This document shows, in pieces, positions 12,433-53,492 of a stretch of 56,140 bases of DNA. The notes beneath the pieces are model-generated. The model searched no databases. It was not told where the DNA came from and saw only the letters and a list, made by a program, of their open reading frames with translations. The stretch is from a virus (lineage: Duplodnaviria; Caudoviricetes). Made by a program: the position numbers and the translations under genes. The stretch spans positions 1 through 56,140 of the IMG/VR virus record IMGVR_UViG_3300012005_000007. One strand, given 5' to 3'. The stretch's first letter is position 1. Each line of letters opens with the position of its first letter.

Positions 12433-12656
12433 TGGAGATAACAATTGGTAATTTTGATTACTCAGCTATTATTGATGAAAAAGGTAAAACTGACTGGATT
12501 TATAAAGCTAAAGACTTTATTCCTCCAAAAAAAGTAATTAAAGAACCAGTTCAATATAAAATACAAAACGTAATTGAAAGGTCTTTTAAAGATAACTATC
12601 AAAAAACGTTAAAAACAACAGTAAAAGAACTCATTTTATACATAAATGGCATTTAA
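12432..12656 (+). CDS. Hypothetical protein
   Basis: 74-aa ORF overlapping the next gene start. Confidence 0.55.
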   Translation: MEITIGNFDYSAIIDEKGKTDWIYKAKDFIPPKKVIKEPVQYKIQNVIERSFKDNYQKTLKTTVKELILYINGI

Positions 12657-13788
12657 AACAGTCACAGACCAGCGTAACGCAATAAACATACTTTCAATGT
12701 ATGGAAAATTACCTGAGAAAAAGGTAGAAACAACTCAATCTGAAACTCTTGTAAAGGCGGTGATTGGTAAAACAAGGTCGGGTAAAGAAGTATACAATAT
12801 GACAGATGAGTCTTATGAAAACTTCACTAAAGTTGACCATAAGTTTGCAACTGAATTGTGTAAAGCACAGAATTTAGTTGAAGAAGTTGAATACCACAAG
12901 GAGCGCTATAATGAGTTACAAAAGTCTGAAGCATATAATGGGTTAAAAGACCAGTTTGATATGTTGATAAAGAGTGAGGTAATTGATGAGTTAGAAAAAG
13001 CAGAAGGAGATCATGGGGGAAAAGTCATTGGTCATACAATTAGTGGAAAGCCTATTTACGAAAACCAATCTGCTCATGATTATGTAGGTTTTTCAAAAGA
13101 AGATCATGAAGGTGGAGCTTTACATCACCAAAGGGAAGCAGATAAACATAATAAAGGTACCAAAAAAAATATTTGGCATGAAGCAAAAGCTCATGGTCAT
13201 AAAGAACGCTATAATGAGTTACAAAAGTCTGAGGCATATAACGGGTTAAAAGACCAGTTTGATATGTTGATAAAGGCAGAAGATGACTTAGAAAAAGGTG
13301 GTGAAGGAAGTAGAGGTGGAAAAGTTATTGGACATACCTCTACAGGTAAACCTATTTATGATAATGCAGATAACCCTGCACATAAAAGTTTTGGTACTAA
13401 TGAACATTTTCAAGCAGCACAACTTCATAAAGACCTTGAGAAACATTGGGATTCTAAAATACCTAAATCAGATGGTACAGGTTTTGGTGATAGGCGAGCA
13501 AGAGCCTCGGTTGCAAATGAAAAAGCAAATCACCATTTTGACCAAGCAAATAAACATGAAGAGTCTATGAGGTCAGTTGCTAATGGTGGTTCAAGAGAAA
13601 TAGGTAAAACTCAATCAGGTAAAAGTATAATGAATGACCCTCATCATGAAGACCATAAAGATTTTACAAAACAAGACCATATAGATGCTACAAAAGTTAA
13701 CAGGGATATAGGTAATAAAGAACGTTCTTCTAAAGCACTTGATAGAGCAGATGCTCATAGGGAACTTGCAAAAACTGCAAAAAATTAA
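12646..13788 (+). CDS. Modular His-rich protein with four IG[HK]TxSGK tags (putative capsid-internal cargo)
   Basis: ILSMY leader; LVK|AVIGKTRSGKEVY, LEK|AEGDHGGKVIGHTISGKPIY, LEK|GGEGSRGGKVIGHTSTGKPIY, REIGKTQSGKS. Confidence 0.75.
   Translation: MAFKTVTDQRNAINILSMYGKLPEKKVETTQSETLVKAVIGKTRSGKEVYNMTDESYENFTKVDHKFATELCKAQNLVEEVEYHKERYNELQKSEAYNGLKDQFDMLIKSEVIDELEKAEGDHGGKVIGHTISGKPIYENQSAHDYVGFSKEDHEGGALHHQREADKHNKGTKKNIWHEAKAHGHKERYNELQKSEAYNGLKDQFDMLIKAEDDLEKGGEGSRGGKVIGHTSTGKPIYDNADNPAHKSFGTNEHFQAAQLHKDLEKHWDSKIPKSDGTGFGDRRARASVANEKANHHFDQANKHEESMRSVANGGSREIGKTQSGKSIMNDPHHEDHKDFTKQDHIDATKVNRDIGNKERSSKALDRADAHRELAKTAKN
12895..13275 (+). repeat. Intragenic 78-bp direct repeat (12895-12972 / 13198-13275)
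   Basis: Both copies encode HKERYNELQKSEAYNGLKDQFDMLIK and differ only at synonymous positions. Confidence 0.9.
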
Positions 13789-13800
13789 AAATAGTAAAAT

Positions 13801-13838
13801 AATACACAATTAAAAAAATAATACACAATTAAAAAAAT
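13801..13838. repeat. 19-bp tandem duplication AATACACAATTAAAAAAAT x2
   Basis: Seen directly in the intergenic region. Confidence 0.85.
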
Positions 13839-14227: not shown

Positions 14228-15631
14228 ATGATACGTAAAGCGGTATACTCACTTTGGCAACCTGGAGGGATTGCAGTAAATGGAGGGTTCTTAAAAAATC
14301 GCCATTTAGGACAAACACTTGCACTTTCACTTGAATACTCCAAAAAACAATTTGAAACAGTTGAACTTGTAACTAATAAGGCAGGGTATGAACTACTGAT
14401 TAAGAAATATGACTTACCTTTCGATACCGTAAAATTTTTCCCAACAGAATTTGATACTCTAAATCCAGATTTCTGGGCATATGCTAAAATTTATGCATAT
14501 TCAATCCAAGAGGAACCATTTATTCACATTGACAATGATGTGATAGTTTTCAACAAAATTCCACAAGAAAAACTTGAGGCACCACTATTATTTCAGAATA
14601 AAGAATATTTTAAAGAACATACAGGGTATACTCGTTTAATAGACGAGGCATTAACTTTTCCAAAACTTGATTTTAGTCTGTTTAAAAACCTACCTCAGTT
14701 TGCATATAATTGTGGGGTGGTAGGCTGTAATTCACTAGAATTTATAGTTGAATGGAAAAAAATTGTAGATGAGTATTTATTTAACCCTCGTAATAAAAAT
14801 ACTTGGGATGGAATAAAAGACAAACATTCTCATAACCACTTATATGAGCAATTTTTTTCTTCTAGTTTAATTAGTAGAGATAACATAAAGGCACAAACCT
14901 TACTTGCAGATGATTTTTATGTATCAACATACAGGGATAAAGTAGGACTTGTACATCTTTGGGGAGCTTCAAAGCGTGATTTAGATACCATGGAACGTGT
15001 TAAACAGCGTTTACTACATGAATTTCCAAAATATAAAGATATATTTGATGTAGAAGAAACTCATAGTGAGATTTTTAGCGATATAATTCGTAGTGAAAAA
15101 TGGGGTAAAGGACAAGGGTCAGGAGGAGGTTCATCAATTGAAATAACTAAAGGGTATAGAGAATTCTTACAAAAATTTCTTAAAGACAAAAATATTAAAA
15201 CCTGCCTGGACTTTGGTTGTGGAGATTGGCAGTTTTCAAAACTAATAAATTGGTCAGGGATAAAATACTTAGGTCTTGATTGTGTACAAAAAATTGTAGA
15301 AGAAAACAATGAACTATATTCAGAAGATAATATAAAATTCCAATACCAATCAGATAATATACTTCTTCATAATAATTATGACCTGTTAATAGTTAAAGAT
15401 GTACTAATCCACTGGTCAAACAGTGAAATAAATGAATTCTTAAAACTTGTAAGAGAACTTGACTTTAAATATATATTAATTACGACACAAGTTGAAGTCG
15501 TTAATAACTACGAAATAAAAACAGGAGAATACCATCCAGTTAATTTAAATGAAAGTCCATTTAATTGTAATTGTGAAGAAATTTTTAAATGGTCTTCGGA
15601 TAATAAAATTACGTACCTTTTAACCAAATGA
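14228..15631 (+). CDS. Fusion of glycosyltransferase-like (DUF6734-like) domain and class I SAM methyltransferase
   Basis: WAYAKIYAY..QEEPFIHIDND (DxD), YNCGVVG, EQ and HLWG motifs; C-terminal WG..GSGGGS and LDFGCGDW. Confidence 0.7.
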   Translation: MIRKAVYSLWQPGGIAVNGGFLKNRHLGQTLALSLEYSKKQFETVELVTNKAGYELLIKKYDLPFDTVKFFPTEFDTLNPDFWAYAKIYAYSIQEEPFIHIDNDVIVFNKIPQEKLEAPLLFQNKEYFKEHTGYTRLIDEALTFPKLDFSLFKNLPQFAYNCGVVGCNSLEFIVEWKKIVDEYLFNPRNKNTWDGIKDKHSHNHLYEQFFSSSLISRDNIKAQTLLADDFYVSTYRDKVGLVHLWGASKRDLDTMERVKQRLLHEFPKYKDIFDVEETHSEIFSDIIRSEKWGKGQGSGGGSSIEITKGYREFLQKFLKDKNIKTCLDFGCGDWQFSKLINWSGIKYLGLDCVQKIVEENNELYSEDNIKFQYQSDNILLHNNYDLLIVKDVLIHWSNSEINEFLKLVRELDFKYILITTQVEVVNNYEIKTGEYHPVNLNESPFNCNCEEIFKWSSDNKITYLLTK

Positions 15632-16790: not shown

Positions 16791-18566
16791 ATGGACAAAC
16801 TTCCTATAGACATACGTAAAGCACAAATTTTATCAATGTATGAACCTGACTTAGAAAAAGGTGGGGTAGGCTCAGGGAGAGTAATAGGACATACAAAATT
16901 AGGTTCTAAAGTATACGAAAACTATAACCACCCCTCTCACAAAGATTTTACTTCCTCTGAACATCTTGAAGCAAGTAATATTCATGCTGATTTAAATAAC
17001 CCAAAGTCTACTTTAACCCATACTCAATCAGATGAAGCTTCTGCACATCATTTTAGAGAACATGAAAAAAGAGAAAAAGCTGAAGAGGGTTTAATAAATG
17101 AATTTAGAAAAAAAGATCCTACATTTTTAGGACAAAATAAAATACAAAAAAGTGAAGAAGAAACTATCTCACAACTCAAAAAATCCATAGAAGATAAAAA
17201 CAATTTAAATAAAGCCTTTGATATCTTAAACGACAAAGATATGTTATGTAAAGCAATCGGACGGACAGGACTTACTCCAAAAAAAGTCACCGTAACAATG
17301 AAAAACGGACAAACTCATCAAGCAATCAGGTGGGTAAATGAACATGATGAAGCACCAAGTCTAAAACATGTATATAAAAATGTAGGAGAAGACGTAACGG
17401 GTGATAATTCAGAACAACGAATCCACAACATTGTTAATCATGACTCTATGTCTCCTGACCTAAAAGTCAAAAATCTTGCACATGAAGGCATCTATGACAA
17501 AGATACACTTTCTAACCTTACTGGTGCAGCACCTCAAAAAGCATACGATATACTCTACAATGCGGGCGTTAAACATAAAGAATTCCGAGATGACCACAAA
17601 GCATTATTAGGAGGTTCAGAAATTTTACCGAAAGATCCAGTGACAGGAGTACAGGTTCCGGTGTCGATGGCGATACATGAGGCGAAGGAGGCACTTAAAA
17701 CTAATGATTTTGAAAAATACCGTGTAGAAAAACAAAGAGAACTTGCTGCAAAATATGGTGTATCAATGGATAACCGTTGGGAGGCATATAATAGAAAACT
17801 AAGAGATACAATACAAGTTGGTTACCCAAGATCATTAATTGCATTTGGGCTCGGCGGGTTGGGTAAAACGTATGATTTTGAACAAATTGCACAAGAATTA
17901 GAGTTAAGACAATACGATGATGACCCTGAGTTGGGTGGTATGGATAATGAAGACGAATATGATTATGTTCTTTTGTCAGGGTCACTTAGTAAAACTGATA
18001 TGTGGAGGCAATTATGCCAACATAAAAATAAATTAATTGTATTTGATGACTTAGATTCTATTTGGGATACTACAGGGGGAGATGATATGGTTAATTGGCT
18101 TAAGAAAATTTGTGATACTACAGGAGATGGGGTAGTACGTAATGGTAATGGTGATAAAGTAAAAGATATCAATGGTGAGCCTTGTCCTAGAATGTGTAAG
18201 TTTAGAGGACGTATTATAAGTATAACTAATCTTAAAGCTTCTGATTTACCTCAACCACTTATAGACTCAAGATCAGGTTCTATTGATTTAACAATGAATA
18301 TGGACCAAACATTAGAAAAAATTGATAAAATCAAGTATAAAATAAAACTAAAAGATGATAAGGGGGAAGAAATAACTGCTTCAAAAGAAGATAGGGAATT
18401 AATGGTAGATTTTTTAAAGGAATTTAAAGACTACCTTAGAATTGAGCAAGTTAACGGTAGAACTGCTGGTCAGATTATAGGAGATGCACAATCTTTAAGG
18501 AGATTAGGTAAATTTTCTAAAGAAGAATTTTATAAAGCTGCATTAATTTCTTTAAGAATTGTATAA
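16791..18566 (+). CDS. Tagged modular protein with C-terminal P-loop/AAA-type ATPase
   Basis: ILSMY leader, LEK|GGVGSGRVIGHTKLGSKVY tag; Walker A GLGGLGKT, Walker B LIVFDD, IISITN and SR. Confidence 0.75.
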   Translation: MDKLPIDIRKAQILSMYEPDLEKGGVGSGRVIGHTKLGSKVYENYNHPSHKDFTSSEHLEASNIHADLNNPKSTLTHTQSDEASAHHFREHEKREKAEEGLINEFRKKDPTFLGQNKIQKSEEETISQLKKSIEDKNNLNKAFDILNDKDMLCKAIGRTGLTPKKVTVTMKNGQTHQAIRWVNEHDEAPSLKHVYKNVGEDVTGDNSEQRIHNIVNHDSMSPDLKVKNLAHEGIYDKDTLSNLTGAAPQKAYDILYNAGVKHKEFRDDHKALLGGSEILPKDPVTGVQVPVSMAIHEAKEALKTNDFEKYRVEKQRELAAKYGVSMDNRWEAYNRKLRDTIQVGYPRSLIAFGLGGLGKTYDFEQIAQELELRQYDDDPELGGMDNEDEYDYVLLSGSLSKTDMWRQLCQHKNKLIVFDDLDSIWDTTGGDDMVNWLKKICDTTGDGVVRNGNGDKVKDINGEPCPRMCKFRGRIISITNLKASDLPQPLIDSRSGSIDLTMNMDQTLEKIDKIKYKIKLKDDKGEEITASKEDRELMVDFLKEFKDYLRIEQVNGRTAGQIIGDAQSLRRLGKFSKEEFYKAALISLRIV

Positions 18567-22349: not shown

Positions 22350-22739
22350 ATGATAAACGAATTTAATAAAGGTAATGCGAGTAGAATATTAGCTTGTTAT
22401 TCCAATGCAGATGAACTTTTAAAAGGTGGTGAGGGTAGTAAGGGAGGAAAAGTTATAGGACATACCAAATCTGGAAAACCTATTTACGAAAGAAGTAAAG
22501 AAGTAATGAGTAAGTACTCTGATTTTTCAAAAGAAGACCACCAAGATGCTCAAAAAGAACATATTAAACATGCTGAAAAATATGCAGATGAAGAACAAAA
22601 AAACTTATCTGCATCAAATAAAGATTATTTAGAAGGTAAAGATAACTCTAAAAACCATGATAAATATTCTCATTCTAAAATTAAAAAAGAAGAACATATT
22701 GACCATGGTTCTTGGCATAGAGAAAGATCTAATGATTAA
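22350..22739 (+). CDS. Small tagged His-rich protein
   Basis: ILACY leader; LLK|GGEGSKGGKVIGHTKSGKPIY; FSKEDHQDA. Confidence 0.75.
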   Translation: MINEFNKGNASRILACYSNADELLKGGEGSKGGKVIGHTKSGKPIYERSKEVMSKYSDFSKEDHQDAQKEHIKHAEKYADEEQKNLSASNKDYLEGKDNSKNHDKYSHSKIKKEEHIDHGSWHRERSND

Positions 22740-22910: not shown

Positions 22911-25900
22911 ATGGAAGATTTAATTGAAATACCAGGGGGATTATTATCAAAATCTTATCTTGGAGAATTATATAATAAATACATTGTAAGCCCCTTTCAA
23001 GATACTTTTGGTCTTAAAAAATCAAAAGAGAAAACTGTTTACTGTGATGCAATAGTACTAAATTATTTAGGACAGTTACTTATCTTACAACGTTCTTATA
23101 ACGCCTCATTTGGACCAGGAAAATGGTCATTACCAGGCGGGCATCTTGATCCAGGAGAAACAATACAACAAGGTGCAGAACGTGAACTTGATGAAGAAAC
23201 AGATATAATTGCAGACCTTGAATTTTTACAAACTATAGAAAAAGAAGATTGTACAATTCATTACTTTACAGGAAATGTAACAGATCCACAACTCATTTTG
23301 GATAATGAAGAACATTACAGATTTGAATGGATAGACACATCTGAGATACCTGAATACGATTTCTTACTAGATCTTGGTACTACACTTTCAAATTTATTTC
23401 CAAATTTTGTAGAAGAACCAATTGAAAATAATGAGGAACCAAATCTTAATTTAGCTGATGAACTAGATAAAAACTATGAAATAGTAAAAGTCGAATTTGA
23501 GAAGGGTAATGTAGATCTTGATACATTTTTAGATTATACACTTAAATATAATATTCTAAAAAAATCAGAAGGCTCCCGTGGAGGTCATATTATTGGACAT
23601 ACGAAAAGTGGAAAACCCATTTATGAAGACCACAACCATCCCTCACACCAAAACTTTACCCATCAAGACCATGAGGATGCAGAAACAGCTCATGCTAATA
23701 TTGGTAATACTTTAAAGAGAAATTCTTCAGATTGGAAACACCATTGGAATGAAGGAGGAAAACATTATGATAGTTCTAAAAATAAAATGGTAGAAGAACC
23801 AACTTTTAAAATAGACAAAGAAGATAAAGATGGTTTTTCAGCTGTACATTATTCTGACCAACCAGATTTTGAAAAAGGTGGAGAAGGCTCTCGTGGAGGT
23901 AAAATAGTTGGACATGATAAAAATGGTAAAGCGATATATAACTCAGGTGAATTAGTTGGTAATAACCAAATTCCTTACCATAGATCTCAATCAGTAACTT
24001 ACCATAGAGATTACGAATTTGGTAAAACAGGAACTGAAACTGCAAAAGTAGTTAGTGTAAACCCACATTCTGGTCATGTATTACTGGATAATGGACATGA
24101 TCTTCACCATATAGAACTCCAAAAAAGAGAAGGACGTGGAAGTAAAATAGTAAAGAGTGAGATAACTGATGAAGAAATAGATGAACTCATCAAAGGTGCC
24201 CGTGCCCAAATTGGAGAGGTACGTACATGGGGTAAAGAAAAATGGGTAAAACACATTGATGGATGGGTACACGTTTCAGACAAAGGTAAACATATACTTG
24301 AACGCCCAGGAGGTAAACGTGAAGTTGCAAGTGAAAGTCATGTAGAACATGCTAAAAAGTATTTAGAAAATAAATTACCATCAGGTTCAACTACTGAAGA
24401 AAGAGAAAAGTTTAGAGAGGAAAATAAACCAGAGGAAATTGATAACTTTTCAGAATTTAAAGATATAGTAAATACCTCCTCTTCACTTGAAGAAGCATTT
24501 AATAAAGTAAAAAACAAAAAAGATGTACCAAATCAAACTGCAAGAGAATTTAGAGATAGGTTCGACCCTGATAATGAATTAACACCACTTCAGGCATTTA
24601 CAAAATTTTATGATGAGGTAAAGAAAGTAGATAAACCTGGAGAGTGGGTAATGGGGTATACAAAAAGTGGTAAACCAATTCATTCAGGTTTTGAACATCC
24701 TGACCATAAAAATTTCACAAAAGAAGACCATAAGGATGCAGCTGAACTAATTGGTCAAAACCAAACTATATTCCAGAAGTTCAATAGAAGTTCTACTGAC
24801 CCTGAGGAAAATGATAAGATGATTAAAATGGGTGAACAGAAACTTAAACATATTGAGAGTAGTAAAGATGAGTTTGAATGGAAGAAAAATAACTTTGGAC
24901 ATGATTTATACCATAATGGTGAAAATACAACTTTAGGTGCAAAAAAAGAAAGTGATAAAAAAGGTGTAGAGGAACTTTATAGAAATTCTCCTAATTATAA
25001 AATTTCAAACAACACTAAAAAGAATGTAAAAGAAGGTAAAGTAGACTTAGGCATAGAAGGTATTAGTTTTAATTATAAAATTAATAATGAGGGTTTTTAT
25101 GATATATACGAGGATAAAACTGAAACCAAAATACCAGTTATGTCACCAACATATACTTTATCTGAGGCAAAAACCGATGCAATTAGCTATATAAAAAATG
25201 ATATAGGTTTAGAAAAGTTTAAATCTTTGGTTGAAAACTTTAAGAAACCAGTTGAAACTGAAATAGAAAAGAAAGAAAAAACAACTGACTTACACCGTGA
25301 AGAACATAACCAATTAGTAAACTCAAGAGATAGATCTTTAAGTAGATTATCTGAAACTCGTAAAAAATATGGTTCAGGTTATGGTAAAATGGAACCATGG
25401 AAACGTGCAGCATTAAAAAGAGATGAACATGAAGTTGATAAGTCAAATAAAAAAATTGACCAATTTAAATATAACCATACTGAAGTTCGTAAAGCATTAA
25501 AAGAAGTTGGTATTTCTGCATCTACAACTCAAACAACTGCAATCAGAGGTTTTACTAATGAGTCTAAAGGTTATAATTTAAATGAAGGTGGTTATAATCC
25601 AGATCTTTTAAGTTTAAACCATATATCACTTGAAAAATTTGAAGAAGTAAAATCTGCACTTGAAAAAAGAGGTTTTGAAATAATATCCTCTTCACCACCT
25701 TCTAAAATAATTGCAGGAGGTTCATCTGCAAGTATAAAGTTTGAACCATATCATAAAGATGAAGATTTAAAATTAAAAAAGATCCAAAAGGCAGATGATG
25801 ACTTAATAAACGCACTAATCAAAGCAAAAGAAGTTAAAAAACCTGAAGATAAAGACAAAGAACCAACCGAAGATGAACAACGCCTAGGTACTGCAGATCC

Positions 25901-26645
25901 TCATTCAGATTACAAACTTAAAAAACATGCTCGTAGTGCCTCAGAAGAAAGTTTAAATAAAACAATCAAAGGATCAGGTGATGAAAAACTACGAAAAATT
26001 GCACATAAAGAACTTGACCGTAGAAAGAAAGAAGAACACATCAAAGATGAAAAAGAAAAAGCAGCAATTGCAGCTGCAAAGAAACCACTAAAAAAAGGTG
26101 AAGAAAACTTCTTTGAAACTACCGCTAAGGAGTTTGAAAAAATTTTAGATAAGGCAGTAGGTGATGAAAATACACCAGTTGAAACTAAACCTAATGAAAT
26201 AAAAACTGATAATCATGTGGTAAGTACAGACAAAGATCTTGAAGTAACTGCAGAGGTTGGTCCTGATAAAATGGAGAAGGGAACTTATGTTGATAATTAT
26301 GAAAACAGACATGAAGGAATAGTGGGACAAGAATATCACCATACAGAAAAAATTGAAGATGATAGACCTGCAAATATTAAACTTGAACATAATATAAATA
26401 CCACACTTGGTAATATGATGAAAGGTATATATTATGAAGATGGTTTAAATGACCAACAGTTATATAGTCTTGACCTTCTTGCAGAAAATTGGAGTATAGA
26501 TCCACTTCACTATATTTCAGACATAACTAAATCTGACTTACCAAACCAAACACATACAGTTAAAATAATTGACCAACGTAATAACCAAACACTGGTAACT
26601 GCGGATATTGACAGTGCAGGGAAGTTGTCAAATGTAGTTTTATAA
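22911..26645 (+). CDS. 1244-aa modular polyprotein: Nudix hydrolase plus multiple tagged modules
   Basis: Nudix box GGHLDPGETIQQGAERELDEETDI; three GHT/GYT tags; AQIGEVRTW tag; many xxK|[GAS] sites. Confidence 0.8.
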   Translation: MEDLIEIPGGLLSKSYLGELYNKYIVSPFQDTFGLKKSKEKTVYCDAIVLNYLGQLLILQRSYNASFGPGKWSLPGGHLDPGETIQQGAERELDEETDIIADLEFLQTIEKEDCTIHYFTGNVTDPQLILDNEEHYRFEWIDTSEIPEYDFLLDLGTTLSNLFPNFVEEPIENNEEPNLNLADELDKNYEIVKVEFEKGNVDLDTFLDYTLKYNILKKSEGSRGGHIIGHTKSGKPIYEDHNHPSHQNFTHQDHEDAETAHANIGNTLKRNSSDWKHHWNEGGKHYDSSKNKMVEEPTFKIDKEDKDGFSAVHYSDQPDFEKGGEGSRGGKIVGHDKNGKAIYNSGELVGNNQIPYHRSQSVTYHRDYEFGKTGTETAKVVSVNPHSGHVLLDNGHDLHHIELQKREGRGSKIVKSEITDEEIDELIKGARAQIGEVRTWGKEKWVKHIDGWVHVSDKGKHILERPGGKREVASESHVEHAKKYLENKLPSGSTTEEREKFREENKPEEIDNFSEFKDIVNTSSSLEEAFNKVKNKKDVPNQTAREFRDRFDPDNELTPLQAFTKFYDEVKKVDKPGEWVMGYTKSGKPIHSGFEHPDHKNFTKEDHKDAAELIGQNQTIFQKFNRSSTDPEENDKMIKMGEQKLKHIESSKDEFEWKKNNFGHDLYHNGENTTLGAKKESDKKGVEELYRNSPNYKISNNTKKNVKEGKVDLGIEGISFNYKINNEGFYDIYEDKTETKIPVMSPTYTLSEAKTDAISYIKNDIGLEKFKSLVENFKKPVETEIEKKEKTTDLHREEHNQLVNSRDRSLSRLSETRKKYGSGYGKMEPWKRAALKRDEHEVDKSNKKIDQFKYNHTEVRKALKEVGISASTTQTTAIRGFTNESKGYNLNEGGYNPDLLSLNHISLEKFEEVKSALEKRGFEIISSSPPSKIIAGGSSASIKFEPYHKDEDLKLKKIQKADDDLINALIKAKEVKKPEDKDKEPTEDEQRLGTADPHSDYKLKKHARSASEESLNKTIKGSGDEKLRKIAHKELDRRKKEEHIKDEKEKAAIAAAKKPLKKGEENFFETTAKEFEKILDKAVGDENTPVETKPNEIKTDNHVVSTDKDLEVTAEVGPDKMEKGTYVDNYENRHEGIVGQEYHHTEKIEDDRPANIKLEHNINTTLGNMMKGIYYEDGLNDQQLYSLDLLAENWSIDPLHYISDITKSDLPNQTHTVKIIDQRNNQTLVTADIDSAGKLSNVVL

Positions 26646-27878: not shown

Positions 27879-29390
27879 ATGACTCCACAAGATAAACAAA
27901 ACTCAGAAAGAATTCTTGATATGTACACTTCAGACCTTGAAAAAGGTGGAAAACGTGCAGAAATTGGTGAAGTAAGAACTTGGGCAGGACAAAAATGGGT
28001 AAAACATACAGATGGTTGGGTACATATATCCGAAAAAACTGGAAAACACCTTCTTGAATTACCAGGTGGTAAAAGAGTATCTGCCGAACCCCACCATATT
28101 GAACATGCTAAAAAATACTTGAGTAGTAATAAGGAAGTTGGAAGTCTTAAAAAACTAAATAATGGAAATATAAAAACCTTAATAAATGGTAAGGAATATA
28201 TATTTGGTTTTAATGCAGATGAAAGTGGTATATATGGAATAGTTCTACCAGGGGAAGAAACTTTTAGTAATATAAATAAAGGTGAAGCAAAAAAAATATA
28301 TGAAAAGTATAGTGAAGAAATCTTAAAATTTTCAAAAGAAAAACTTTCAACCAACAGTAATATTGTTGATTATGCAGCACGTATGTTTGGAACAGCCGAA
28401 TATCCAGTCATAAATAAAATACTGATTGAAGTTCAACCAAAACTTGATGCAGTAGTTGAGGCGACACGTAAATTTTGTGAAAACCATGAACCAAATCCTT
28501 TAAAATTTGATGAGCGTGATAAAGAATATTGTGAAATAGAAACAATAGGCAAACTTTTAAGTTCACTAGGAAAATATATTAAGAAAACAGATAAAATTTC
28601 AGAGCGTTACCCAATGACTTTTTCTAATACTGCAAAAGGGGTAGAAATAAAATCTCAAATTGAACGAGAAGGAAAAGTATATAATTTTGATACAGATTGT
28701 ATAACCGCAGGTGGATATAATATTCAGGCATGGCATTATCGTTATTTAATCAAAACAGACTTACCCGCAATTCATAACCCTTTCACCGCAAAAATTGAAA
28801 ACCGGGTGAAGGCAATGAAGAAAGAAGATAAACTGGTTGAAGAAATAAAAAGAACAGAAGGGTACCTTGAACGTACAAAATCTGAATACGAAAAAATTAA
28901 AGATATAACCAAAGAAATTTCAGATAAAGAATGGGAAGATAAATACTCTTATCCTAAAACTTATGAAGAAACAAATGAAGGGTCTCATTTAAGAAATCAA
29001 GGACCTGAAAAATTTTATGACTACATAGCTCAAGAAAAAGCAAGGCATTACGAAAGAATTCAAGAACAAGTTAAATATCTACCAAAACAAATCAAACAAC
29101 AAGAAAAAGAAGTTCAAAAGTATAAAGACAAACTAGAAGAAACCATTAAAAATAAATGGAACGAAATTGAAGAACCAGCCGAAGGTGATTTTAAAATAAT
29201 TCGTGACCGTCAAAATTATGGACGTCAACCAGGAATCCATTTACACAAATTTGAAAACGGAAATTATAAACGGTTAGTTACTACTTATGGTAAAAATGTA
29301 CGATCTGCAGGGTTTGACCCGTACAAGGATGAAGACATAATAAAATATTATAACTGGAAGAAAGAAAATCCAGATAAACCAAAAGACTAG
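27879..29390 (+). CDS. Tagged modular protein (AEIGEVRTW tag; AGGYNIQxxHYRY domain; coiled coil)
   Basis: ILDMY leader, LEK|GGKRAEIGEVRTW; ~55-aa block shared with the 22911 protein. Confidence 0.75.
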   Translation: MTPQDKQNSERILDMYTSDLEKGGKRAEIGEVRTWAGQKWVKHTDGWVHISEKTGKHLLELPGGKRVSAEPHHIEHAKKYLSSNKEVGSLKKLNNGNIKTLINGKEYIFGFNADESGIYGIVLPGEETFSNINKGEAKKIYEKYSEEILKFSKEKLSTNSNIVDYAARMFGTAEYPVINKILIEVQPKLDAVVEATRKFCENHEPNPLKFDERDKEYCEIETIGKLLSSLGKYIKKTDKISERYPMTFSNTAKGVEIKSQIEREGKVYNFDTDCITAGGYNIQAWHYRYLIKTDLPAIHNPFTAKIENRVKAMKKEDKLVEEIKRTEGYLERTKSEYEKIKDITKEISDKEWEDKYSYPKTYEETNEGSHLRNQGPEKFYDYIAQEKARHYERIQEQVKYLPKQIKQQEKEVQKYKDKLEETIKNKWNEIEEPAEGDFKIIRDRQNYGRQPGIHLHKFENGNYKRLVTTYGKNVRSAGFDPYKDEDIIKYYNWKKENPDKPKD

Positions 29391-30634: not shown

Positions 30635-32347
30635 ATGTCCAAAAAAGTACAAAATAAATTCAATTTTCAAATACCAATGCAAAAAATAGAGAAATCTAAA
30701 GGTGCAGACGGTAAGGAAATAATGAAATTTAAAGGTATATGTTCTTCTAAAACTGAAGATTCTGATGGTGAAACTTTACATCCAGATGGATTTGACTTTC
30801 AGCCTTTAATGGAGAAAGGTTTTATTAACTATAATCACCAAGCAGGGAAATCCTCAGGAACTATAGTTGGTCGTCCAACTAAATGTGAAGTTATAAACGG
30901 GGGAGACGCTCTATATCTAGAGGGTATTTTGTACCCGGAAGTTGATGAGGCACAAAAAATCTATAAACTTGCAAAAGCATTAGAAAATGACCCTACAGGG
31001 CGCCACTTATCGTTCAGTATAGAAGGCAATGCTACACAGAGAGACCCTTTTAACCCTAAGAAAGTTTTAAAGGCAACTATTACTGACGTGGCGATATGCC
31101 ATAAACCTAAAAACTCTAATACCTTCATGCAAATTATGAAAGGTGAACAAGAACAAGATTTTGTAACAACCAACGGTGAAGATGAAGAATCAGGCGAAAT
31201 AAACCAACCAATAGAAGGAGAAGATGAAACTGAAAAAGCCTTAACCGCAGAAACCGTAACCAATACTTTTGGAGTACCAGATATTGAAGGAACACCAAAA
31301 AAACTTTTAGCGAAAAGCGAAATATACAAATCATTAATATCTAAATATGATATTGATAATATTGAAAAAGCAAAAGAAATTTATACATTCATTGATACAG
31401 TAAACACAAAATTATATAACAACATGGAAGGAATTACTTCTGAGGCTCTAGTAAAAGCATTTGAGTTTCTAGATACACAAATAACTAAAAGTGAAGAAGT
31501 CGAAATAGTTAAAGCCGAAGGCGGAGTACAAGATGATAACCAAGGCACTGAAGACGAAATAGAAGCTTCAAAGAAAAAAGAAGAAATGGAAAAATCAAAA
31601 GAATTTGCAGTTGAAAACCTTAAAAAAGGTATGTCAAAAGATGAAAATATTGAAGACTGTATCCGTAAAGGAATCTCATTATCAGAATCACAAACAGCTG
31701 TAGAAAGCGCAATTTCAGAATATGAAGCTGGTGAAAAAGAAGGTGGTACAATAACCGCAGTCGTAGATCCAACAATATCATTACAATTAGCGGAAGTATC
31801 AAAAACAGTTGCAGAGTTAACAAAAGCAATTGAAGCACTAACAACCAAAGACACTTTACAAAAGGCAGAAGGCGAAGAAGTAGAAAATACGTTAACAACA
31901 TTATTAAAAGCCCAAAATGATGGACTTAATGACAGGTTTAGTTCAATGGGTGTAATATTAAAAAGCGTTTTTGAAAACTCTGAACTTTTAAAAGCATCAG
32001 TTGAAGAATTAACTGCAGAAAACGAAGAATTAAAAACTACGGTAAATGCAATTGCAAAAAGTTCAGATGGTCCAAAATCTGTACAACGAGTGACAGCGAA
32101 ACCGGTTGATAGATTTATGAAGAGTGAAGGTTCTGGACAAGAAGGTTCAATGACTTACCAATTATCAGACAAAGCGTCTTGTGGTGCATTAACAGATAGA
32201 TTGTTTGCAGATTATACTCTACAGAAGTCTAAGGGTATAGATGACAGTGAGTTGAAGAAGGGTATTGAAAATATAGAATTTACAAAAACATTAACTCCAG
32301 CATTTCAGGCACGTCTTGAGAAGCAAGGTATTAACGTAGTAAGATAA
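30635..32347 (+). CDS. Prohead protease fused to scaffold-like C-terminal region
   Basis: FKGICSS...DSDGE, GFINYNH and SFSIEG herpes-fold protease motifs; acidic coiled-coil tail with about 20 xxK|[GAS] sites; upstream of capsid. Confidence 0.88.
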   Translation: MSKKVQNKFNFQIPMQKIEKSKGADGKEIMKFKGICSSKTEDSDGETLHPDGFDFQPLMEKGFINYNHQAGKSSGTIVGRPTKCEVINGGDALYLEGILYPEVDEAQKIYKLAKALENDPTGRHLSFSIEGNATQRDPFNPKKVLKATITDVAICHKPKNSNTFMQIMKGEQEQDFVTTNGEDEESGEINQPIEGEDETEKALTAETVTNTFGVPDIEGTPKKLLAKSEIYKSLISKYDIDNIEKAKEIYTFIDTVNTKLYNNMEGITSEALVKAFEFLDTQITKSEEVEIVKAEGGVQDDNQGTEDEIEASKKKEEMEKSKEFAVENLKKGMSKDENIEDCIRKGISLSESQTAVESAISEYEAGEKEGGTITAVVDPTISLQLAEVSKTVAELTKAIEALTTKDTLQKAEGEEVENTLTTLLKAQNDGLNDRFSSMGVILKSVFENSELLKASVEELTAENEELKTTVNAIAKSSDGPKSVQRVTAKPVDRFMKSEGSGQEGSMTYQLSDKASCGALTDRLFADYTLQKSKGIDDSELKKGIENIEFTKTLTPAFQARLEKQGINVVR

Positions 32348-32476: not shown

Positions 32477-33946
32477 ATGATTAGTTTAGCTGATTACCAA
32501 GATGGATTTCTTGGTACAGAACAAGAAGGTCTGCAAGAGTTGCAAAAAGCAATGGTTGCGGGCGAAATTACAGGTAGGGATATAACCAACTTACCTTTAA
32601 CTCAAGAACCACTTAAAGTGGAATCACTTGAAAAAACACTTAAATTATTGGATTATCGTCCAAGTGATATTAAGTTATGGGGTGCAGTTCCTAAAATGGT
32701 TGCATATAATACAGTAGAAGAATTCTTGCAATTGCAATCTTATGGTTCTGATGCAAACTTTTATGATGAAGGTGAGTTATCTGATGTAAGTGACTCTACT
32801 TATGTAAGACGTGCAACTTATGTTAAATACATACAACAAACTGGTGAAGTTACAATTCAAGCTCAAATGGTTAAGTCGTATGTTGAGGCCTATGGTCAAG
32901 AATGTAAGAATAAATTAATGAATGTGTTACGTTCTGCAGATAAGTATTTAACTAATGCAGATAGTGATATAATTCCTCAACAATTTGACTCTTTCTACAA
33001 ACAACATGCTTCTATTGGTGGTACACCAGAGTATCTATATCCAAACTTTGAAGCTTATTATAATTCAGGAGTCGTAGTTGATATGCGTGGAAAGTCAATT
33101 AAACAAATTGATATTGAAAGTGCTGCTGTAAATGTGGATAGCCATTATGGTACTGCTAACGTACTATTTGGTCCAACTTCAGTTATCTCAACTATATCTC
33201 AGGATTATTTTGAGACACAACGTATTATGTACGGTGGTGGAGTTAACGCAGCTGTAACCGGAGTAGGTGTAAATATCCAGGAAATTTCCACAACTATGGG
33301 CCCAATTAAGTTAATGGGTGATAAGTTTATGAAAGCAGACCCTGCTCATTTACTTACCGATGCAGCCACCAATGCAAAAGCACCAGCTGCACCAGCAACT
33401 GTAACTGCTACTTTGGCCGCAGATAGTATGTGTCATTATTTGACAGCTGAAATAGGTAATGTTTATTATGCAGTAGCAGCTATTAATCGTTATGGTCAAT
33501 CTAACTTAACTCCTATTGGTTCTGCAATAGCAATAACTGTAGGTGATAGAGTTGATCTGGCAATAACCGCAGGTACTGGTGCAAATGCAGCTTCAGGTTA
33601 TTATATCTACCGTACAGCAGTAACAACTGCAGGTTCATCTACTGGTTTAACTTTTTACCCACTGTTTAAAGTTTCAGCTACACAGTTGACTAATGGTTAT
33701 AACAATGCAGCTGCTGGTCATATTGGTGACTTAGGTTACTTCTTACCAAATACAGAAGGGGCGTTTGTAACACAGATGGATGATGAAGTAATGGCTATTA
33801 AGCAACTTGCTCCTCCATCAAAACTTGATTTGGCAGTAATTTCAATGAGCCGTAGGTTTATCGTGTTCTCATTTTTATCGTGTGTCTTGAGCGCACCTCA
33901 AAAATTTGTGAGATTCATAAATGTGGGCAGGACACACACAGTTTAA
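32477..33946 (+). CDS. Major capsid protein (Herelleviridae-like precursor)
   Basis: PLKVESLE, EGELSDVSDSTYVRR..VKY, QFD, VVDMRG, LAP..KLDLA and APQKFVRFINV; propeptide ends ELQK24|A. Confidence 0.92.
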   Translation: MISLADYQDGFLGTEQEGLQELQKAMVAGEITGRDITNLPLTQEPLKVESLEKTLKLLDYRPSDIKLWGAVPKMVAYNTVEEFLQLQSYGSDANFYDEGELSDVSDSTYVRRATYVKYIQQTGEVTIQAQMVKSYVEAYGQECKNKLMNVLRSADKYLTNADSDIIPQQFDSFYKQHASIGGTPEYLYPNFEAYYNSGVVVDMRGKSIKQIDIESAAVNVDSHYGTANVLFGPTSVISTISQDYFETQRIMYGGGVNAAVTGVGVNIQEISTTMGPIKLMGDKFMKADPAHLLTDAATNAKAPAAPATVTATLAADSMCHYLTAEIGNVYYAVAAINRYGQSNLTPIGSAIAITVGDRVDLAITAGTGANAASGYYIYRTAVTTAGSSTGLTFYPLFKVSATQLTNGYNNAAAGHIGDLGYFLPNTEGAFVTQMDDEVMAIKQLAPPSKLDLAVISMSRRFIVFSFLSCVLSAPQKFVRFINVGRTHTV

Positions 33947-49587: not shown

Positions 49588-52500
49588 ATGGACTTCTACA
49601 CCGTAACTTTCTCCTCTTCTGAATTAAAAACTGTGGGTGACTATTTAACCTCAGATGTTTGTCCTATAGAATTACCTGATGATAATTATAATCCTGTTAC
49701 CCTTTATTCTCATGCAAAAGATTTTTTAAGTTGGACAGATGATAAAATTACTAATCTTGATAGAATACTTGCATCTTATACACCTTCAGAATTAGCTGCA
49801 TATAATTCTTCTCCAAACCCTACCTTTTCTCCAGTTCTAACTTCCCCCTTAATAGTTAAACTTAAAACTGGTGTTAAATTCGTAATACCTCAAGACAAAG
49901 TCAATAGATACGGAATTGTAAACCAAGGACTTCAAATTGTTTCAACTGATGAACCAACTTTTAAAGCACATGAACTTGTAAAACTAGAATCAGATAGAGG
50001 TTATAACCATACTGATGGACCGATACCAAGTTCAGTTGAAAATGGTATAGTAAGACAATATTATCCAAATATAACTATATGGGTTTGGTGCCGGGCACTT
50101 TCTGAAAATAATCCAATACCTCAAACAAGTGGTTCTTTTATTAATAATTTAAAAGGACAAATATTTGACCTTTCCCCTTTTATTATACGTTCACAAACAT
50201 CTGTTGGTAAAAATGGAGGAAATTTTGATATAACACTACCACCACTTGTTTGTGAATTTGAAGGGGGTCATTGGGTTGTTAAAAAAAATTCTATAAAAAG
50301 TACTATTTCAAAAATAACGGGTAATAACGAATATTTATCTCAAGAATCCTTTTCAAAAATTAATACATCAACTAGTTCTCTTGAGCGTAACCAATTCTTA
50401 TTCCATAATATACTATCTACCAATGATTTGGTTTTTATACGCTTTGAGACACTCAATATGGAGTCAGAACAAAGGTATAGCGATGCGACCAATTTCTTTT
50501 TGAATAAAGATAGACTTGGGGGTCGTATTTATGATATGATAGGACTTATTGACTCTAATTCATTTTCATATAATCCAGAAACAAACGATGTAAGTATTCA
50601 GGTATCAGGACGAGATCTTTCAAAACTTTTTATAGATGATGGTGCATATTTTTACGCACTAGAATTATCACAAGGTAAAGCAAATTTTGCAAGTTCACAG
50701 GCAAAAAATGTACTAACACAGCGTGTTTTCTTTGATAATGCACGGGGATTTCAAAATTTGTACTATAATAATTCTATTGAAAACGTATTTAGATTTGTTA
50801 TACAACAGTTATCAACAATTGGGGTAGTACCAGATGATTTATTTACCTCCTATGTTGATAAGTCAAAAAGTGATGGTTCAACTTTTGGTCAAACAGGTCC
50901 TTTAGGACTTTTAGGTATTATAAAGAAACATGATAATGACAGACGAAATTACCAATATCAACCATCAGGTCAATCTCAAAATGAACAACAAAAATCAATA
51001 TCAATAACTGATGGTTATATAACAAAGGCAAAAAATGAACTTTCAAGGTTAAGAAAATTATATGGGTACCAGTATATGGATACAGGACAGAATGTTGTTA
51101 ATCAAAAAGGGGAAGAAGATGAAATAAATACTACCTATAATCTTCTTTATGATTTTATATCTTTTTTAAGAGAACCTGATAACCAAAAAACTACAGTAAG
51201 ACAAGTAACAGGTAATACAACAAGTGGGTGGAAACCAGTTTTTTATAACTCTACAAACTTACAGTCTAACCAATTTCCTACAGACTTTAATATATTTCCT
51301 AATCAATTTACACAACCAATAAATGGAAATACATACCTTTCTTCAGCTGTTTCTCAATTAATTAGTTATATTGATAACGTTATAGATTCACAAAAATCTT
51401 CAGATTATCAAGAAATACCTGTAGAAAAACTATCAACTGGTATTTGGCAAATAATTGATTTAGTACTGGATAGTTCAATTGCAGCAAGAAGACTTGTTGA
51501 TAGTTCAATTTCATCTTCTCAGGGTTCTCTACTTAATTTTTTCAGAAAAGCATGCCAAGATCCATTTGTTGAGTATTTTTCTGATACTTATTCTGATAAA
51601 TTTGTTTTAACTATTCGTAGACCACCTTATAATGCAGAGGGAGTAAAAACATTACTTAATGGTAAAGTAAAAACTGAAATTACAAGTCAAGCGGTAACCG
51701 GTTCAACAATAACAATTAATGAACATAATGTACTTCAAGAATCATTATCTTTTGATGATACAGAAGTATATTCATGGTATAACCTTAAACCAATTGCTTC
51801 AATGAGTGCAGGGGCAGCGAATTTTGCAACTGCTTATTTACCTGCAATTTATTTACCTGAATATGCAGAAATTTGGGGATCAAGACCCTATGAGGCAGTT
51901 TCAAATTATATACCATATTTACCACTTGATAATAAAAATGTAAAAATATCTACTGAATTAAAACAATGTTATATAGACCTTGCATATTTAGTTGAGTCTC
52001 ATGCACATTTACCTTTTACTCGTAAAGGAACATTGGTCTTAAATGGGGATAGACGTATAAAAATAGGAAACCTGATACGATATGAACCAACTGGTGAAAT
52101 ATTTTTAGTAGATGCAGTTTCTCAAACTTATATGATAAATGAAGGTAAAGTTGATAGAACAACAACGGTACAGGTAAGTCGTGGAATGATTGAACAACTT
52201 ATATATGGGGTTGATATTCAATTTGGTTCACATACTAAAAAGGTAAGTTATTTTAATATTGTTAATACAGACCTTAATTTTAATTTAACTAAAACAATTG
52301 TTGTAACTACACCAAAAACTGTTAATAATCCAAACTATTCACCAACTTCAGATTCTACTGATAATTCAGGTGATCCATTAAAAACACCAGAGACATTACA
52401 ACAAACTATATTATCTTCTTTTCAAAAAATTACCAATCCATTAATATTATCAGGTTATAATCTATGGTATATACAAAAACTAGATATATCTGTTCAATCT

Positions 52501-53007
52501 AAGTTTACCTCATTTTTACAACAAGCTCAAAAACTTGGTTGGAATCCAATAATTAAAGATGGTAAACGTAGTTATGCACAGCAATTAGAATACTATAAAA
52601 AAACTCCTGAACTTTATAATAATATACCTCCAACCACAACCGCCCCTCATGTTGCAGGTTTTGCAATTGATGTAAACTTTGTTAATAGTTCAGGTACAAA
52701 TTTAGGACAGAAAACTCCAAAATCTGAGTGGGAATTAAGTGGTATTACAAAAATTGCAGATTCACTTGGTTTAAGGTGGGGTGGAACATTTACTGGTGGT
52801 ACTGATAATAATCATTTTGATTATAAAGGTAATTCAAACCAAAATAGTCAACCACAACAAATTACGGAAAATACTTATACAACTCAAGAGGTACCTGATG
52901 AAACCAAATTATTACAAAATTTTGTAGTAGATAGAGACATATTTGGATTCTTTTTACGTAAACAGCAGATACAGTATGCAAATACCGAATTTATAAATAG
53001 GACTTAA
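49588..53007 (+). CDS. Baseplate hub / tail-associated protein with M15 peptidoglycan peptidase domain
   Basis: VSGRDLSKL, RRPPY and RKGTLVLNGDRRIKIG hub motifs; inserted GKRSYAQQ...PHVAGFAIDV...GLRWGG..DNNHFD. Confidence 0.75.
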   Translation: MDFYTVTFSSSELKTVGDYLTSDVCPIELPDDNYNPVTLYSHAKDFLSWTDDKITNLDRILASYTPSELAAYNSSPNPTFSPVLTSPLIVKLKTGVKFVIPQDKVNRYGIVNQGLQIVSTDEPTFKAHELVKLESDRGYNHTDGPIPSSVENGIVRQYYPNITIWVWCRALSENNPIPQTSGSFINNLKGQIFDLSPFIIRSQTSVGKNGGNFDITLPPLVCEFEGGHWVVKKNSIKSTISKITGNNEYLSQESFSKINTSTSSLERNQFLFHNILSTNDLVFIRFETLNMESEQRYSDATNFFLNKDRLGGRIYDMIGLIDSNSFSYNPETNDVSIQVSGRDLSKLFIDDGAYFYALELSQGKANFASSQAKNVLTQRVFFDNARGFQNLYYNNSIENVFRFVIQQLSTIGVVPDDLFTSYVDKSKSDGSTFGQTGPLGLLGIIKKHDNDRRNYQYQPSGQSQNEQQKSISITDGYITKAKNELSRLRKLYGYQYMDTGQNVVNQKGEEDEINTTYNLLYDFISFLREPDNQKTTVRQVTGNTTSGWKPVFYNSTNLQSNQFPTDFNIFPNQFTQPINGNTYLSSAVSQLISYIDNVIDSQKSSDYQEIPVEKLSTGIWQIIDLVLDSSIAARRLVDSSISSSQGSLLNFFRKACQDPFVEYFSDTYSDKFVLTIRRPPYNAEGVKTLLNGKVKTEITSQAVTGSTITINEHNVLQESLSFDDTEVYSWYNLKPIASMSAGAANFATAYLPAIYLPEYAEIWGSRPYEAVSNYIPYLPLDNKNVKISTELKQCYIDLAYLVESHAHLPFTRKGTLVLNGDRRIKIGNLIRYEPTGEIFLVDAVSQTYMINEGKVDRTTTVQVSRGMIEQLIYGVDIQFGSHTKKVSYFNIVNTDLNFNLTKTIVVTTPKTVNNPNYSPTSDSTDNSGDPLKTPETLQQTILSSFQKITNPLILSGYNLWYIQKLDISVQSKFTSFLQQAQKLGWNPIIKDGKRSYAQQLEYYKKTPELYNNIPPTTTAPHVAGFAIDVNFVNSSGTNLGQKTPKSEWELSGITKIADSLGLRWGGTFTGGTDNNHFDYKGNSNQNSQPQQITENTYTTQEVPDETKLLQNFVVDRDIFGFFLRKQQIQYANTEFINRT

Positions 53008-53054
53008 TTTTGTTTTTAAATAATATATACATATTTTTATAAAAATTTTAAAAA

Positions 53055-53492
53055 ATGGTTAATAATCTAAATAAAGGTAGAGCTGCAACAATATTATCTT
53101 GTTACTCAAATGTGGATACAATTTTGAAATCTGAAGATAAAGGTGACCTAGAAAAAGGTGGAGAGGGGAGTCGAGGTGGAAAGGTTATCGGACACACTCA
53201 AAGTGGAAAACCTATTTATGAAACTTCAGAACATACTAAAAAAGTCCTAAAAACCTTAGATAAGCATGTTTCAGTGAACCATACTCCTGATGAAAATGGT
53301 CATCATGAAATTACTTATGCTCGAGAAGAGTTAGGCAGGTATGAACCTGAAAATAAAAGAGTTGTACTAACAAATAATATTGGTTATTATCAAGATGGAA
53401 GATATAATGTAGAATTAGGTCCTCATCAAGGACGTTTTGAAAGAGATTTAGAGAACCATGAGGTACATGTACATGATGAAGATTATGAATAA
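53055..53492 (+). CDS. Small tagged protein
   Basis: ILSCY leader; LEK|GGEGSRGGKVIGHTQSGKPIY. Confidence 0.75.
   Translation: MVNNLNKGRAATILSCYSNVDTILKSEDKGDLEKGGEGSRGGKVIGHTQSGKPIYETSEHTKKVLKTLDKHVSVNHTPDENGHHEITYAREELGRYEPENKRVVLTNNIGYYQDGRYNVELGPHQGRFERDLENHEVHVHDEDYE

Follow-up and report, generated by a model that had tools for sequence, protein, structure and literature searches.

The window analysed here is the whole stretch of IMG/VR virus record IMGVR_UViG_3300012005_000007, a linear sequence of 56,140 bases with about 30% G+C and an estimated completeness of 56%, and the element in question is a short Gly-rich peptide, hereafter called the tag, which recurs in several genes of its head/tail gene block. 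A pattern and profile scan of all six frames located ten tag copies in five open reading frames (ORFs), all on the + strand, which is the coding strand of that block. A preliminary description had listed about ten copies in five to six genes; each of the listed positions holds a copy, and the gene count is five. In a profile search of the six-frame translation, the tag envelopes were placed at 12715-12885, 12985-13158, 13279-13452 and 13558-13728 (ORF 12646-13788), 16842-17012 (ORF 16791-18566), 22407-22589 (ORF 22350-22739), 23544-23717, 23856-24011 and 24612-24782 (ORF 22911-26645) and 53136-53315 (ORF 53055-53492). Copy 23856 comprises only the front part of the unit, and the back half of copy 53136 is divergent. 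Beyond these ten, the best-scoring frame of the window reached only E 0.13. The profile was trained on the window copies themselves, and the independent proof of the repeat is given by 1,963 outside proteins matched at E<=1e-3. A degenerate copy had also been proposed at about 8793: the L-E-K and the Gly-rich linker are indeed shared there (8793..8819, + strand, residues 141-149 of ORF 8373-9401), but the domain that follows in the other copies is not detected by the tag profile.

The five tag proteins, all encoded on the + strand, carry the tag in different settings. The 380-aa product of ORF 12646 (12646..13788) consists of four tag units and linkers rich in the motif [LIMF]-x-K-[GAS], with little else, and no Pfam or PHROG model matches over its units. 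The 591-aa product of ORF 16791 (16791..18566) is made of a leader, one tag, a linker with four motif sites and a P-loop ATPase-like C-terminal domain, which matches phrog_1250 (E 6.4e-13 over residues 295-559) and, weakly, AAA families, and has homologues in 18 loci. The 129-aa product of ORF 22350 (22350..22739) has a leader, L-L-K, one tag and a His/Lys-rich tail. ORF 22911 (22911..26645) encodes a polyprotein-like product of 1244 aa with a NUDIX domain (residues 47-147; PF00293, E 1.2e-16), three tags, one copy of a second module named tag B (24180-24398) and about 600 aa that are uncharacterised. A database entry, P0157, is identical to this 1244-aa protein and lies on a 173,639-base contig; the true genome may exceed about 100 kb, or the P0157 contig may be a chimera. 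Finally, the 145-aa product of ORF 53055 (53055..53492) has a leader, two motif sites and the tag with the divergent back half. This ORF lies 3' of a gene encoding a 1139-aa protein (49588-53007) with a C-terminal Peptidase_M15_4 domain (E 1.2e-8), which directly precedes it. The pairing of an M15_4 gene with a small tag gene recurs at loci L017, L019/L020 and L043/L045, indicating that a tag gene is kept in the tail region as well. In the five tag proteins themselves no peptidase family was found at E<=1, and thus no zincin-like metallopeptidase.

That amino acids are conserved among the copies while codons diverge, as previously suggested, is borne out by the numbers. In the 13-residue core of the copies, mean amino-acid identity is 0.60 and nucleotide identity 0.61, and codon choice differs in 184 of the 351 pairwise identical residues. 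For the eight copies that have the F..DH motif (27 codons; the two copies lacking it were excluded), the median synonymous divergence (dS) is 1.40 and the ratio of nonsynonymous to synonymous divergence (dN/dS) is 0.40. The copies are old duplicates held by purifying selection, and a recent spread of the repeat at DNA level is ruled out by the nucleotide identity of about 61% and the dS of about 1.4. In the same region, a 78-nt direct repeat (12895-12972 and 13198-13275, 303 nt apart) is 94% identical; it encodes the inter-tag linker H-K-E-R-Y-N-E-L-Q-K-S-E-A-Y-N-G-L-K-D-Q-F-D-M-L-I-K with two motif sites, and its DNA conservation is far above that of the flanking tag units, the cores of units 2 and 3 matching by eye at 29 of 39 bases. 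Gene conversion or a constraint acting on the linker might account for this.

The repeat was originally described as a 22-aa peptide. The repeat is real, but the 22 residues are only the front end of a true unit of about 55-60 aa, in which they are followed by a loop and then by a helix with the conserved pattern F-[ST]-x-x-D-H-x-x-A-x-x-x-H. A consensus was drawn from the ten window units and 402 further instances in the best 150 database proteins. Its front reads [LI]-E-K, G-G-E-G-S-R-G-G-K, [VI]-I-G-H-T-K-S-G-K-P-I-Y; its back is a loop of 3-8 residues, often with H-P-x-H, followed by K-D-F-[TS]-x-x-D-H-x-D-A-A-x-x-H. Near-invariant positions are the G (98%) and T (96%) of G-H-T, the second G (97%), the Y (90%) and the H of D-H (88%), and the tip of the hairpin has conserved Lys/Arg (K/R in 77%, K in 89% of instances). 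An AlphaFold2 model built on a 97-sequence alignment (mean predicted local distance difference test score, pLDDT, 78.9) agrees with the beta-hairpin that had been proposed for the motif: residues 1-17, the Gly-rich N-terminus, are poorly ordered, a beta-hairpin is formed by residues 18-21 and 27-29, and a short helix (35-39) and a long one (42-58) follow. On this model, the 22-aa tag is a composite: the [LIMF]-x-K motif comes first, then the Gly-rich linker GEGSRGG, and last the beta-hairpin with which a His-rich mini-domain of about 45 aa begins. His accounts for 9.8% of the residues of the domain versus 1.2% in the other window proteins, and the domain is mildly basic (net charge +1.0 +/- 2.5, median isoelectric point, pI, 8.4). 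Among 340 instances, H100 is kept in 336, H107 in 300, H29 in 241 and H84 in 203. A correlated loss of His residues, considered as a possible sign of a metal site, was not found: H29, H100 and H107 are not associated, and H51 and H84 alone co-vary, as two loop variants. Likewise, a reading of the Gly-rich stretch and hairpin as a Walker-A, KH or KOW element was dropped by eye, the spacings being unfit.

The preliminary description had considered that the motif might match a characterised domain of unrelated function; no family or fold was matched. No Pfam, PHROG or NCBIfam model covers the tag unit, and a PDB sequence profile search returned only chance-level matches (exportin-5, E 0.068; a TRAPP subunit, E 1.6). 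Foldseek searches with the tag model, which could miss a relative given a small domain and a pLDDT of 79, gave 0 matches at E<=1e-3 against PDB and against BFVD. VIA-align over 48,161 chains reached a best Z of 2.5, and ESM Atlas offered no usable feature match, with all structural neighbours at TM <0.5. In a full-text literature search, four peptide words of the motif occurred in no paper, and for the word EGSRGG the only papers among the matches listed were irrelevant ones on the SARS-CoV-2 nucleocapsid. On the other hand, the family is large in uncultivated sequence. Against 1.84 billion cluster representatives, the ten-copy profile matched the above-mentioned 1,963 proteins at E<=1e-3, of which 1,056 at E<=1e-10 and 81 at E<=1e-30, with 2-7 copies per protein in the best 150 of the 1,963; where the sources annotate these proteins at all, they are called hypothetical. 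In IMG/VR, 82 loci contain 212 tag instances, every one on the gene strand (locus scans started from ORF 22350 and from an alignment were productive, those started from ORFs 12646 and 53055 returned none), and four complete relatives of 110-119 kb carry 7, 1, 1 and 1 copies. Searching one genome from each of 185,579 species yielded two matching contigs, of 108,852 and 89,030 bases and labelled Flavobacteriales and Bacteroidales; both belong to metagenome-assembled genomes and are probably phage genomes. By tblastn, none of 50,697 GenBank phage records matched ORF 22350, ORF 12646 or the family protein P0001, and none of 72,556 plasmid records matched P0001. In a control run with the low-complexity filter on and at equal database size, 65 (P0001), 78 (ORF 12646) and 6 (ORF 22350) of 85 loci were recovered, so that the negative result is informative for the P0001 and ORF 12646 queries, and from the plasmid search the family appears to be confined to phages. 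The closest cultured phage is Chryseobacterium phage MA9V-3, described as a myovirus (PMC13120357); part of its capsid gene matches at 67% DNA identity, and it has zero tag copies. The domain thus defines a previously unnamed family from an uncultivated group of large Bacteroidota-type phages.

Most tag genes of the window lie between the genes for the portal protein and the prohead protease. The portal gene (9404..10972, + strand; Phage_portal E 9.9e-27, phrog_12 E 6.6e-49) encodes three motif sites in residues 20-38. The protease gene (30635..32347, + strand; phrog_1028 E 1.7e-32) encodes 570 aa, with the protease domain at about residues 20-170, followed by a long acidic scaffold-like region full of the motif. 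The major capsid protein gene follows (32477..33946, + strand; phrog_752 E 4.4e-63, SU10_MCP E 1.6e-5), with L-Q-K24/A25 near the N-terminus of its product. Among 21 protease sequences with identities as low as 25%, H68 and S128 never vary, and neither do D42, E130 and G131; a catalytic role of H68 and S128 is suggested by this conservation. The AlphaFold2 model of the protease (pLDDT 82.3) gave five Foldseek matches at E<=1e-3, all to herpesvirus proteases; the best was the human cytomegalovirus (HCMV) protease 2wpo_A (E 1.7e-4, probability 1.00, TMq 0.43, 162 columns). As modelled, the N-terminal domain has the herpesvirus-protease (assemblin) fold, which is that of prohead proteases.

The same neighbourhood is found in relatives. 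Within about 10 kb of a tag, 42 of 85 loci have a portal homologue, 34 a protease and 32 a capsid protein (some of these loci overlap on the same contigs and are not independent samples), and the order portal, tag genes, protease, capsid protein recurs. Moreover, tag and prohead protease share one open frame in five relatives (the L006 group, L026, L039/L040, L066 and L073). In L073 the tag follows the protease domain and precedes the scaffold region. In L006 (980-4279; also L007, L042, L044, L076 and L077), a frame of about 1,100 aa, open from stop to stop, joins the protease, three tags and the ATPase; its residues at about 385-420 look by eye like the capsid N-terminal segment K-A-M-x-A-G-x-[IV]-T-G...L-T-Q-x-P-L-K-x-E-S. 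P0089, which had been taken as a further protease fusion, was rejected: its DUF2213 domain has no detectable relation to the protease and is a co-occurring domain only. Elsewhere in the family the tag is fused to NUDIX, Zeta_toxin/AAA_33, LPD1, DUF6582, DUF5661, DUF6496, ferritin-like, VapB and LAGLIDADG domains; tags occur with both NUDIX and Zeta_toxin in P0025, P0175 and P0179, with LPD1 in P0101, P0145 and P0153, and P0030 has two tags fused to a ferritin-like domain. The earlier proposal that the tag marks proteins of the capsid interior, or cargo-type proteins, is backed by this position in the head module and by the protease and enzyme fusions of the relatives.

A Lys-specific cleavage site in front of the tag had also been predicted. 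The motif [LIMF]-x-K-[GAS] is found just upstream of the tag in eight of the ten window copies, the exceptions being 13558 and 24612, so that most copies do directly follow a Lys. When expected counts were computed by composition shuffles, the motif exceeded expectation in the protease-scaffold protein (22 vs 2.6), in the tag proteins ORF 12646 (9 vs 1.4), ORF 22911 (14 vs 4.4), ORF 16791 (7 vs 2.4) and ORF 53055 (3 vs 0.3), in the portal protein (5 vs 1.9) and in ORF 8373 (12 vs 1.5). The last, which holds the L-E-K and linker mentioned above, is an acidic 342-aa ORF (8373..9401, + strand) just upstream of the portal gene, to which no family could be matched; possibly it encodes another scaffold-like protein, or an internal one, that ends up as short cleavage fragments. 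The protease of MA9V-3 has 17 motif sites. All 16 capsid protein sequences compared, with identities as low as 23%, have K24 and A25, and the protease domain ends in a conserved I-x-K-G. Across the family, the motif occurs within 18 residues upstream in 277 of 366 tag instances, versus 319 of 1,830 random windows of the same proteins, with a distance of 10-13 residues from its Lys to the G of G-H-T. Inter-tag linkers are enriched in motifs (224 vs 60.6 expected), and 463 tag cores are depleted of them (8 vs 91 expected). Cleavage after Lys has a precedent in the HK97 capsid protein. The shuffles, the invariant K24-A25 pair and the upstream enrichment make a Lys-specific site before the tag statistically plausible, and we infer that [LIMF]-x-K-[GAS] is where the prohead serine protease encoded by this phage, an enzyme of assemblin fold, would cut. 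The predicted cuts would free the NUDIX domain (about residues 38-198) and the ATPase (about residues 155-582) from the tags and would leave tag peptides of about 57-111 aa.

A second element common to five proteins is an N-terminal leader of about 20-30 residues, which contains I-L-x-x-Y preceded by R/A-x or by K/R-x-x-x-x and ends in L-x-K. It opens ORFs 12646 (12646-12720), 16791 (16791-16859), 22350 (22350-22424), 27879 (27879-27944) and 53055 (53055-53156), all on the + strand, and leaders of this type are also present in the relatives L017, L019, L070, L048 and L074. ORF 22911 has tags and no N-terminal leader, and in some relatives without leader the protein opens with the Gly-rich stretch. 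ORF 27879 (27879..29390, + strand; 503 aa) carries, after the leader and L-E-K/G-G, tag B (27930-28154) in place of the tag. The sequence of tag B, following L-E-K, is G-G-K-R-A-x-I-G-E-V-R-x-W-G-x-x-K-W-V-K-H-x-D-G-W-V...H-x-E-H-A-K-K-Y-L. It occurs in ORFs 27879 and 22911 and altogether in 45 frames from 28 sources, has no Pfam match, and in 22 aligned sequences the Lys of the preceding L-E-K is invariant. The possibility that tag and tag B form one superfamily was rejected (hhalign probability 0.2%). In MA9V-3, the orthologous ATPase opens with tag B where the window protein has the tag, and the two modules are thus interchangeable on this enzyme. The leader is the best candidate for a capsid-targeting propeptide, independent of whichever tag follows.

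On balance, we lean towards reading the module of about 60 aa as a building block of internal-head proteins that are packed in the capsid and probably ejected with the DNA, in a manner similar to T4. Precursors consisting of tags only (ORFs 12646, 22350 and 53055) or of tags and enzymes (NUDIX in ORF 22911, P-loop ATPase in ORF 16791) would be translated and would enter the procapsid core along with the protease-scaffold protein. The protease would then cut at the Lys sites, shredding the scaffold and freeing the enzymes from the tags. Tag cores would survive the protease because they are motif-free, persisting as the peptides of about 57-111 aa, which would stay with the DNA and leave with it. 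We favour for them an activity inside the filled head or the host, such as weak DNA or metal binding through Lys/His, over a use of the tag purely as a loading label. Such an intrinsic role is suggested because 42 of 184 family proteins are tag-only, having no tag-free stretch of at least 100 aa, because the cores avoid the motif and because the conserved residues are polar. A more specific version, which we entertain only tentatively, makes the tag core a new class of internal protein: a His-rich mini-protein of about 45 aa, present in many copies per particle because the protease would release it from polyprotein precursors with up to seven units each, and injected to act on an invariant target. 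In this same tentative version, the target might be the DNA ends, a metal ion or a conserved host factor, and the cassette might be a portable unit for adding enzymes to the injected set.

Several points weigh against the proposal that the module builds internal-head proteins. Loading, cutting, persistence and ejection of the tag proteins are all predictions, and the leader, which also stands on a protein without this tag, is a better candidate for targeting than the tag. H29 and H84 are not strictly kept and the charge is mild, which gives no clear sign of DNA binding or of a fixed metal site. Also where the tag opens the protein and there is nothing to cut off, the Gly-rich stretch is retained; being conserved at an extreme N-terminus without an upstream part, it must be more than a mere spacer of the cleavage site. 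As for the motif, the shuffles ignore sequence kinship, the depletion in the 463 cores does not represent 463 independent events because the family members are related, and some motif matches must fall in folded domains and stay uncut. Finally, the domain is in no cultured phage among the 50,697 GenBank records, and the module is dispensable, since complete relatives go down to one copy and MA9V-3 has none. A complex prediction of the capsid protein with the tag scored 0.00, its controls were not run, and it says nothing either way.

An alternative that we judge rather unlikely is that the tag serves only for loading, as a capsid-targeting or scaffold-binding adaptor that acts before maturation and is then discarded. 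This would explain why relatives have the tag within their protease-scaffold proteins and why it can be exchanged for the unrelated tag B on the ATPase of MA9V-3; multiple copies per protein would provide avidity, and the leaderless ORF 22911 does carry tags. The predicted cuts, moreover, part the tag from the enzymes, so that any joint role would precede cleavage. However, the 42 tag-only proteins would have nothing to load, and a separate leader, shared among the proteins, already exists. The avoidance of the motif by the cores, in a system whose scaffold is full of it, fits survival better than disposal, and the conserved residues (His, Asp, Thr, Ser, Lys) have the look of a ligand-binding site more than of a docking surface.

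The preliminary description had put forward, as one of two options, a DNA-binding hairpin that holds the attached cargo on the packaged DNA. The predicted beta-hairpin with conserved Lys/Arg at its tip, the Gly-Ser-Arg-Gly-Gly stretch in front of it and the high His content would suit this function, and Lys residues of T4 internal proteins are described as contacting DNA (PMC3012670). The anchoring of cargo is nevertheless weakened by the predicted cuts, which fall between the tag and the NUDIX or ATPase domain and would detach the cargo, and by a charge that is only mildly basic; besides, the tag model shows no likeness to any DNA-binding fold in the structure searches given above (best Z 2.5, no Foldseek match at E<=1e-3). 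We therefore regard this explanation as improbable. To about the same degree we doubt that the tag is not a virion component and instead a cytoplasmic metal-binding or regulatory mini-domain of early or late proteins whose genes merely chance to lie in the head region, in which case the Lys motif would be structural and not a protease site. The conserved His/Asp pattern, with H100 and H107 nearly always kept, would agree with such a domain, the placement of the tag proteins in the capsid is itself a deduction from their genes, and position says little by itself because genes for homing endonucleases and a methyltransferase lie among those of the region. Against it stand the in-frame fusions of tag and prohead protease in five relatives, the enrichment of the motif in the scaffold and its invariance at capsid K24-A25, both in proteins without the domain, its presence before the unrelated tag B, and the recurring order of portal, tag genes, protease and capsid protein. 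Last, as to the second option of the preliminary description, a portal or ejection signal, it is highly improbable that the Gly-rich N-terminus exposed by cleavage would be read by the portal or the tail channel and set the order of exit: the predicted cut would give every tag one and the same free end, G-G-E-G-S-R-G-G, conserved beyond the need of a spacer even in proteins that open with it, yet tag B proteins hold equal positions while they would lack this N-terminus, and MA9V-3 is without any tag copy.

Other genes of the window complete the picture of the region. The only large gene on the minus strand, at 6265-7440, encodes a transposase (phrog_506 E 7.1e-129); it separates the nucleotide-metabolism genes from the head module, and within the first 36 kb of the profile the GC skew is negative only here. 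The homing-endonuclease-like ORFs mentioned above, at 18748-20013, 29488-30582 and 34042-35031 (endonuclease, HNH and GIY-YIG PHROG matches), are scattered among the head genes, one directly 5' of the protease gene and one directly 3' of the capsid gene. A 305-aa ORF at 15628-16545, with no family match, has homologues in 37 loci, mostly downstream of the portal gene where a portal gene is present, and from this distribution it looks like a conserved head-module gene.

It is useful to compare the proposed system with those already known. The cleavage motif here ends in Lys, unlike that of the T4 prohead protease gp21, which ends in Glu according to the rule L/I-x-E. The T4 proteins IPI, IPII, IPIII and Alt share a short leader ending at a prohead-protease site, as five proteins do here with L-x-K, by way of analogy. 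The protease belongs to the herpesvirus-like fold class in both cases. T4 internal proteins are described as having a capsid-targeting sequence and being loaded into the scaffolding core; after trimming they remain with the DNA and are later injected (PMC3012670). Differently from T4, where a 10-residue leader is removed, a folded and repeated domain of about 45 aa would be kept downstream of the cut, and the precursors are polyproteins, with up to four units in the window and seven elsewhere. The cleavage of many head-internal proteins, paralogues included, by a prohead protease at a short motif also recalls the E and inner-body proteins of the phiKZ-like phage SPN3US, for which propeptides of head proteins cut at several sites are described (PMC10052503). 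SPN3US has another cleavage motif and a genome of 240 kb versus about 100 kb here; in the present case one small domain is reiterated, and there is no sign of an inner body.

In the polyvalent proteins of phages and conjugative elements (Iyer et al. 2017; PMC5512222), enzymatic domains of unrelated kinds are joined to small uncharacterised LPD domains; these large proteins are encoded next to virion genes and are predicted to be injected and processed by peptidases. ORF 22911, with NUDIX, three tags and tag B, and its relatives have at least two disparate domains, the tag genes lie beside virion genes and the fusion partners are those of the polyvalent-protein repertoire; the large tag proteins are thus polyvalent proteins, whereas the tag-only ORFs 12646, 22350 and 53055 do not combine such domains. 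Differences are also present: there is no zincin-like metallopeptidase, a common but not obligatory feature of polyvalent proteins, processing being assigned instead to the serine prohead protease, and the tag family had no tblastn match in the 72,556 plasmids. The tag domain matches no LPD model in Pfam, a comparison that covers only the Pfam LPDs of the 40 named. It is therefore an undescribed domain family, as compared with the Pfam-listed LPDs, within a known strategy. A further likeness is with the cargo-loading peptides of encapsulins, in which a short shared sequence is found on unrelated proteins inside an HK97-fold shell; here the ferritin-like fusion P0030 is reminiscent of these. 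Encapsulin signals are, however, short, unfolded and usually C-terminal, whereas the tag is predicted to be folded, is mostly N-terminal or internal, is repeated and lies behind a putative protease site.

In comparison with T4, SPN3US and polyvalent proteins, what is new is the predicted Lys specificity, the retained, reiterated and folded domain, the polyprotein layout and the absence from cultured phages. The cultured relative MA9V-3, which carries tag B at equal positions, offers a system for checking the cleavage rule, and the cassette, if it is truly a unit of loading and delivery, would be a compact handle for putting foreign proteins into capsids. Phage proteins that are packaged and ejected are the first to meet the host defences, and beyond T4, P22, T7, N4, phiKZ-like phages and P1 little is known of how phages select, load and process them. 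The present analysis defines an unnamed family of about 2,000 sequence clusters, limited to uncultivated Bacteroidota-type phages, and its grammar, which consists of a leader, a putative Lys-specific protease site, a Gly-rich linker and a mini-domain that would resist the protease. Along with this domain, the phages of this group may deliver NUDIX enzymes, Zeta-toxin-like kinases and ATPases.

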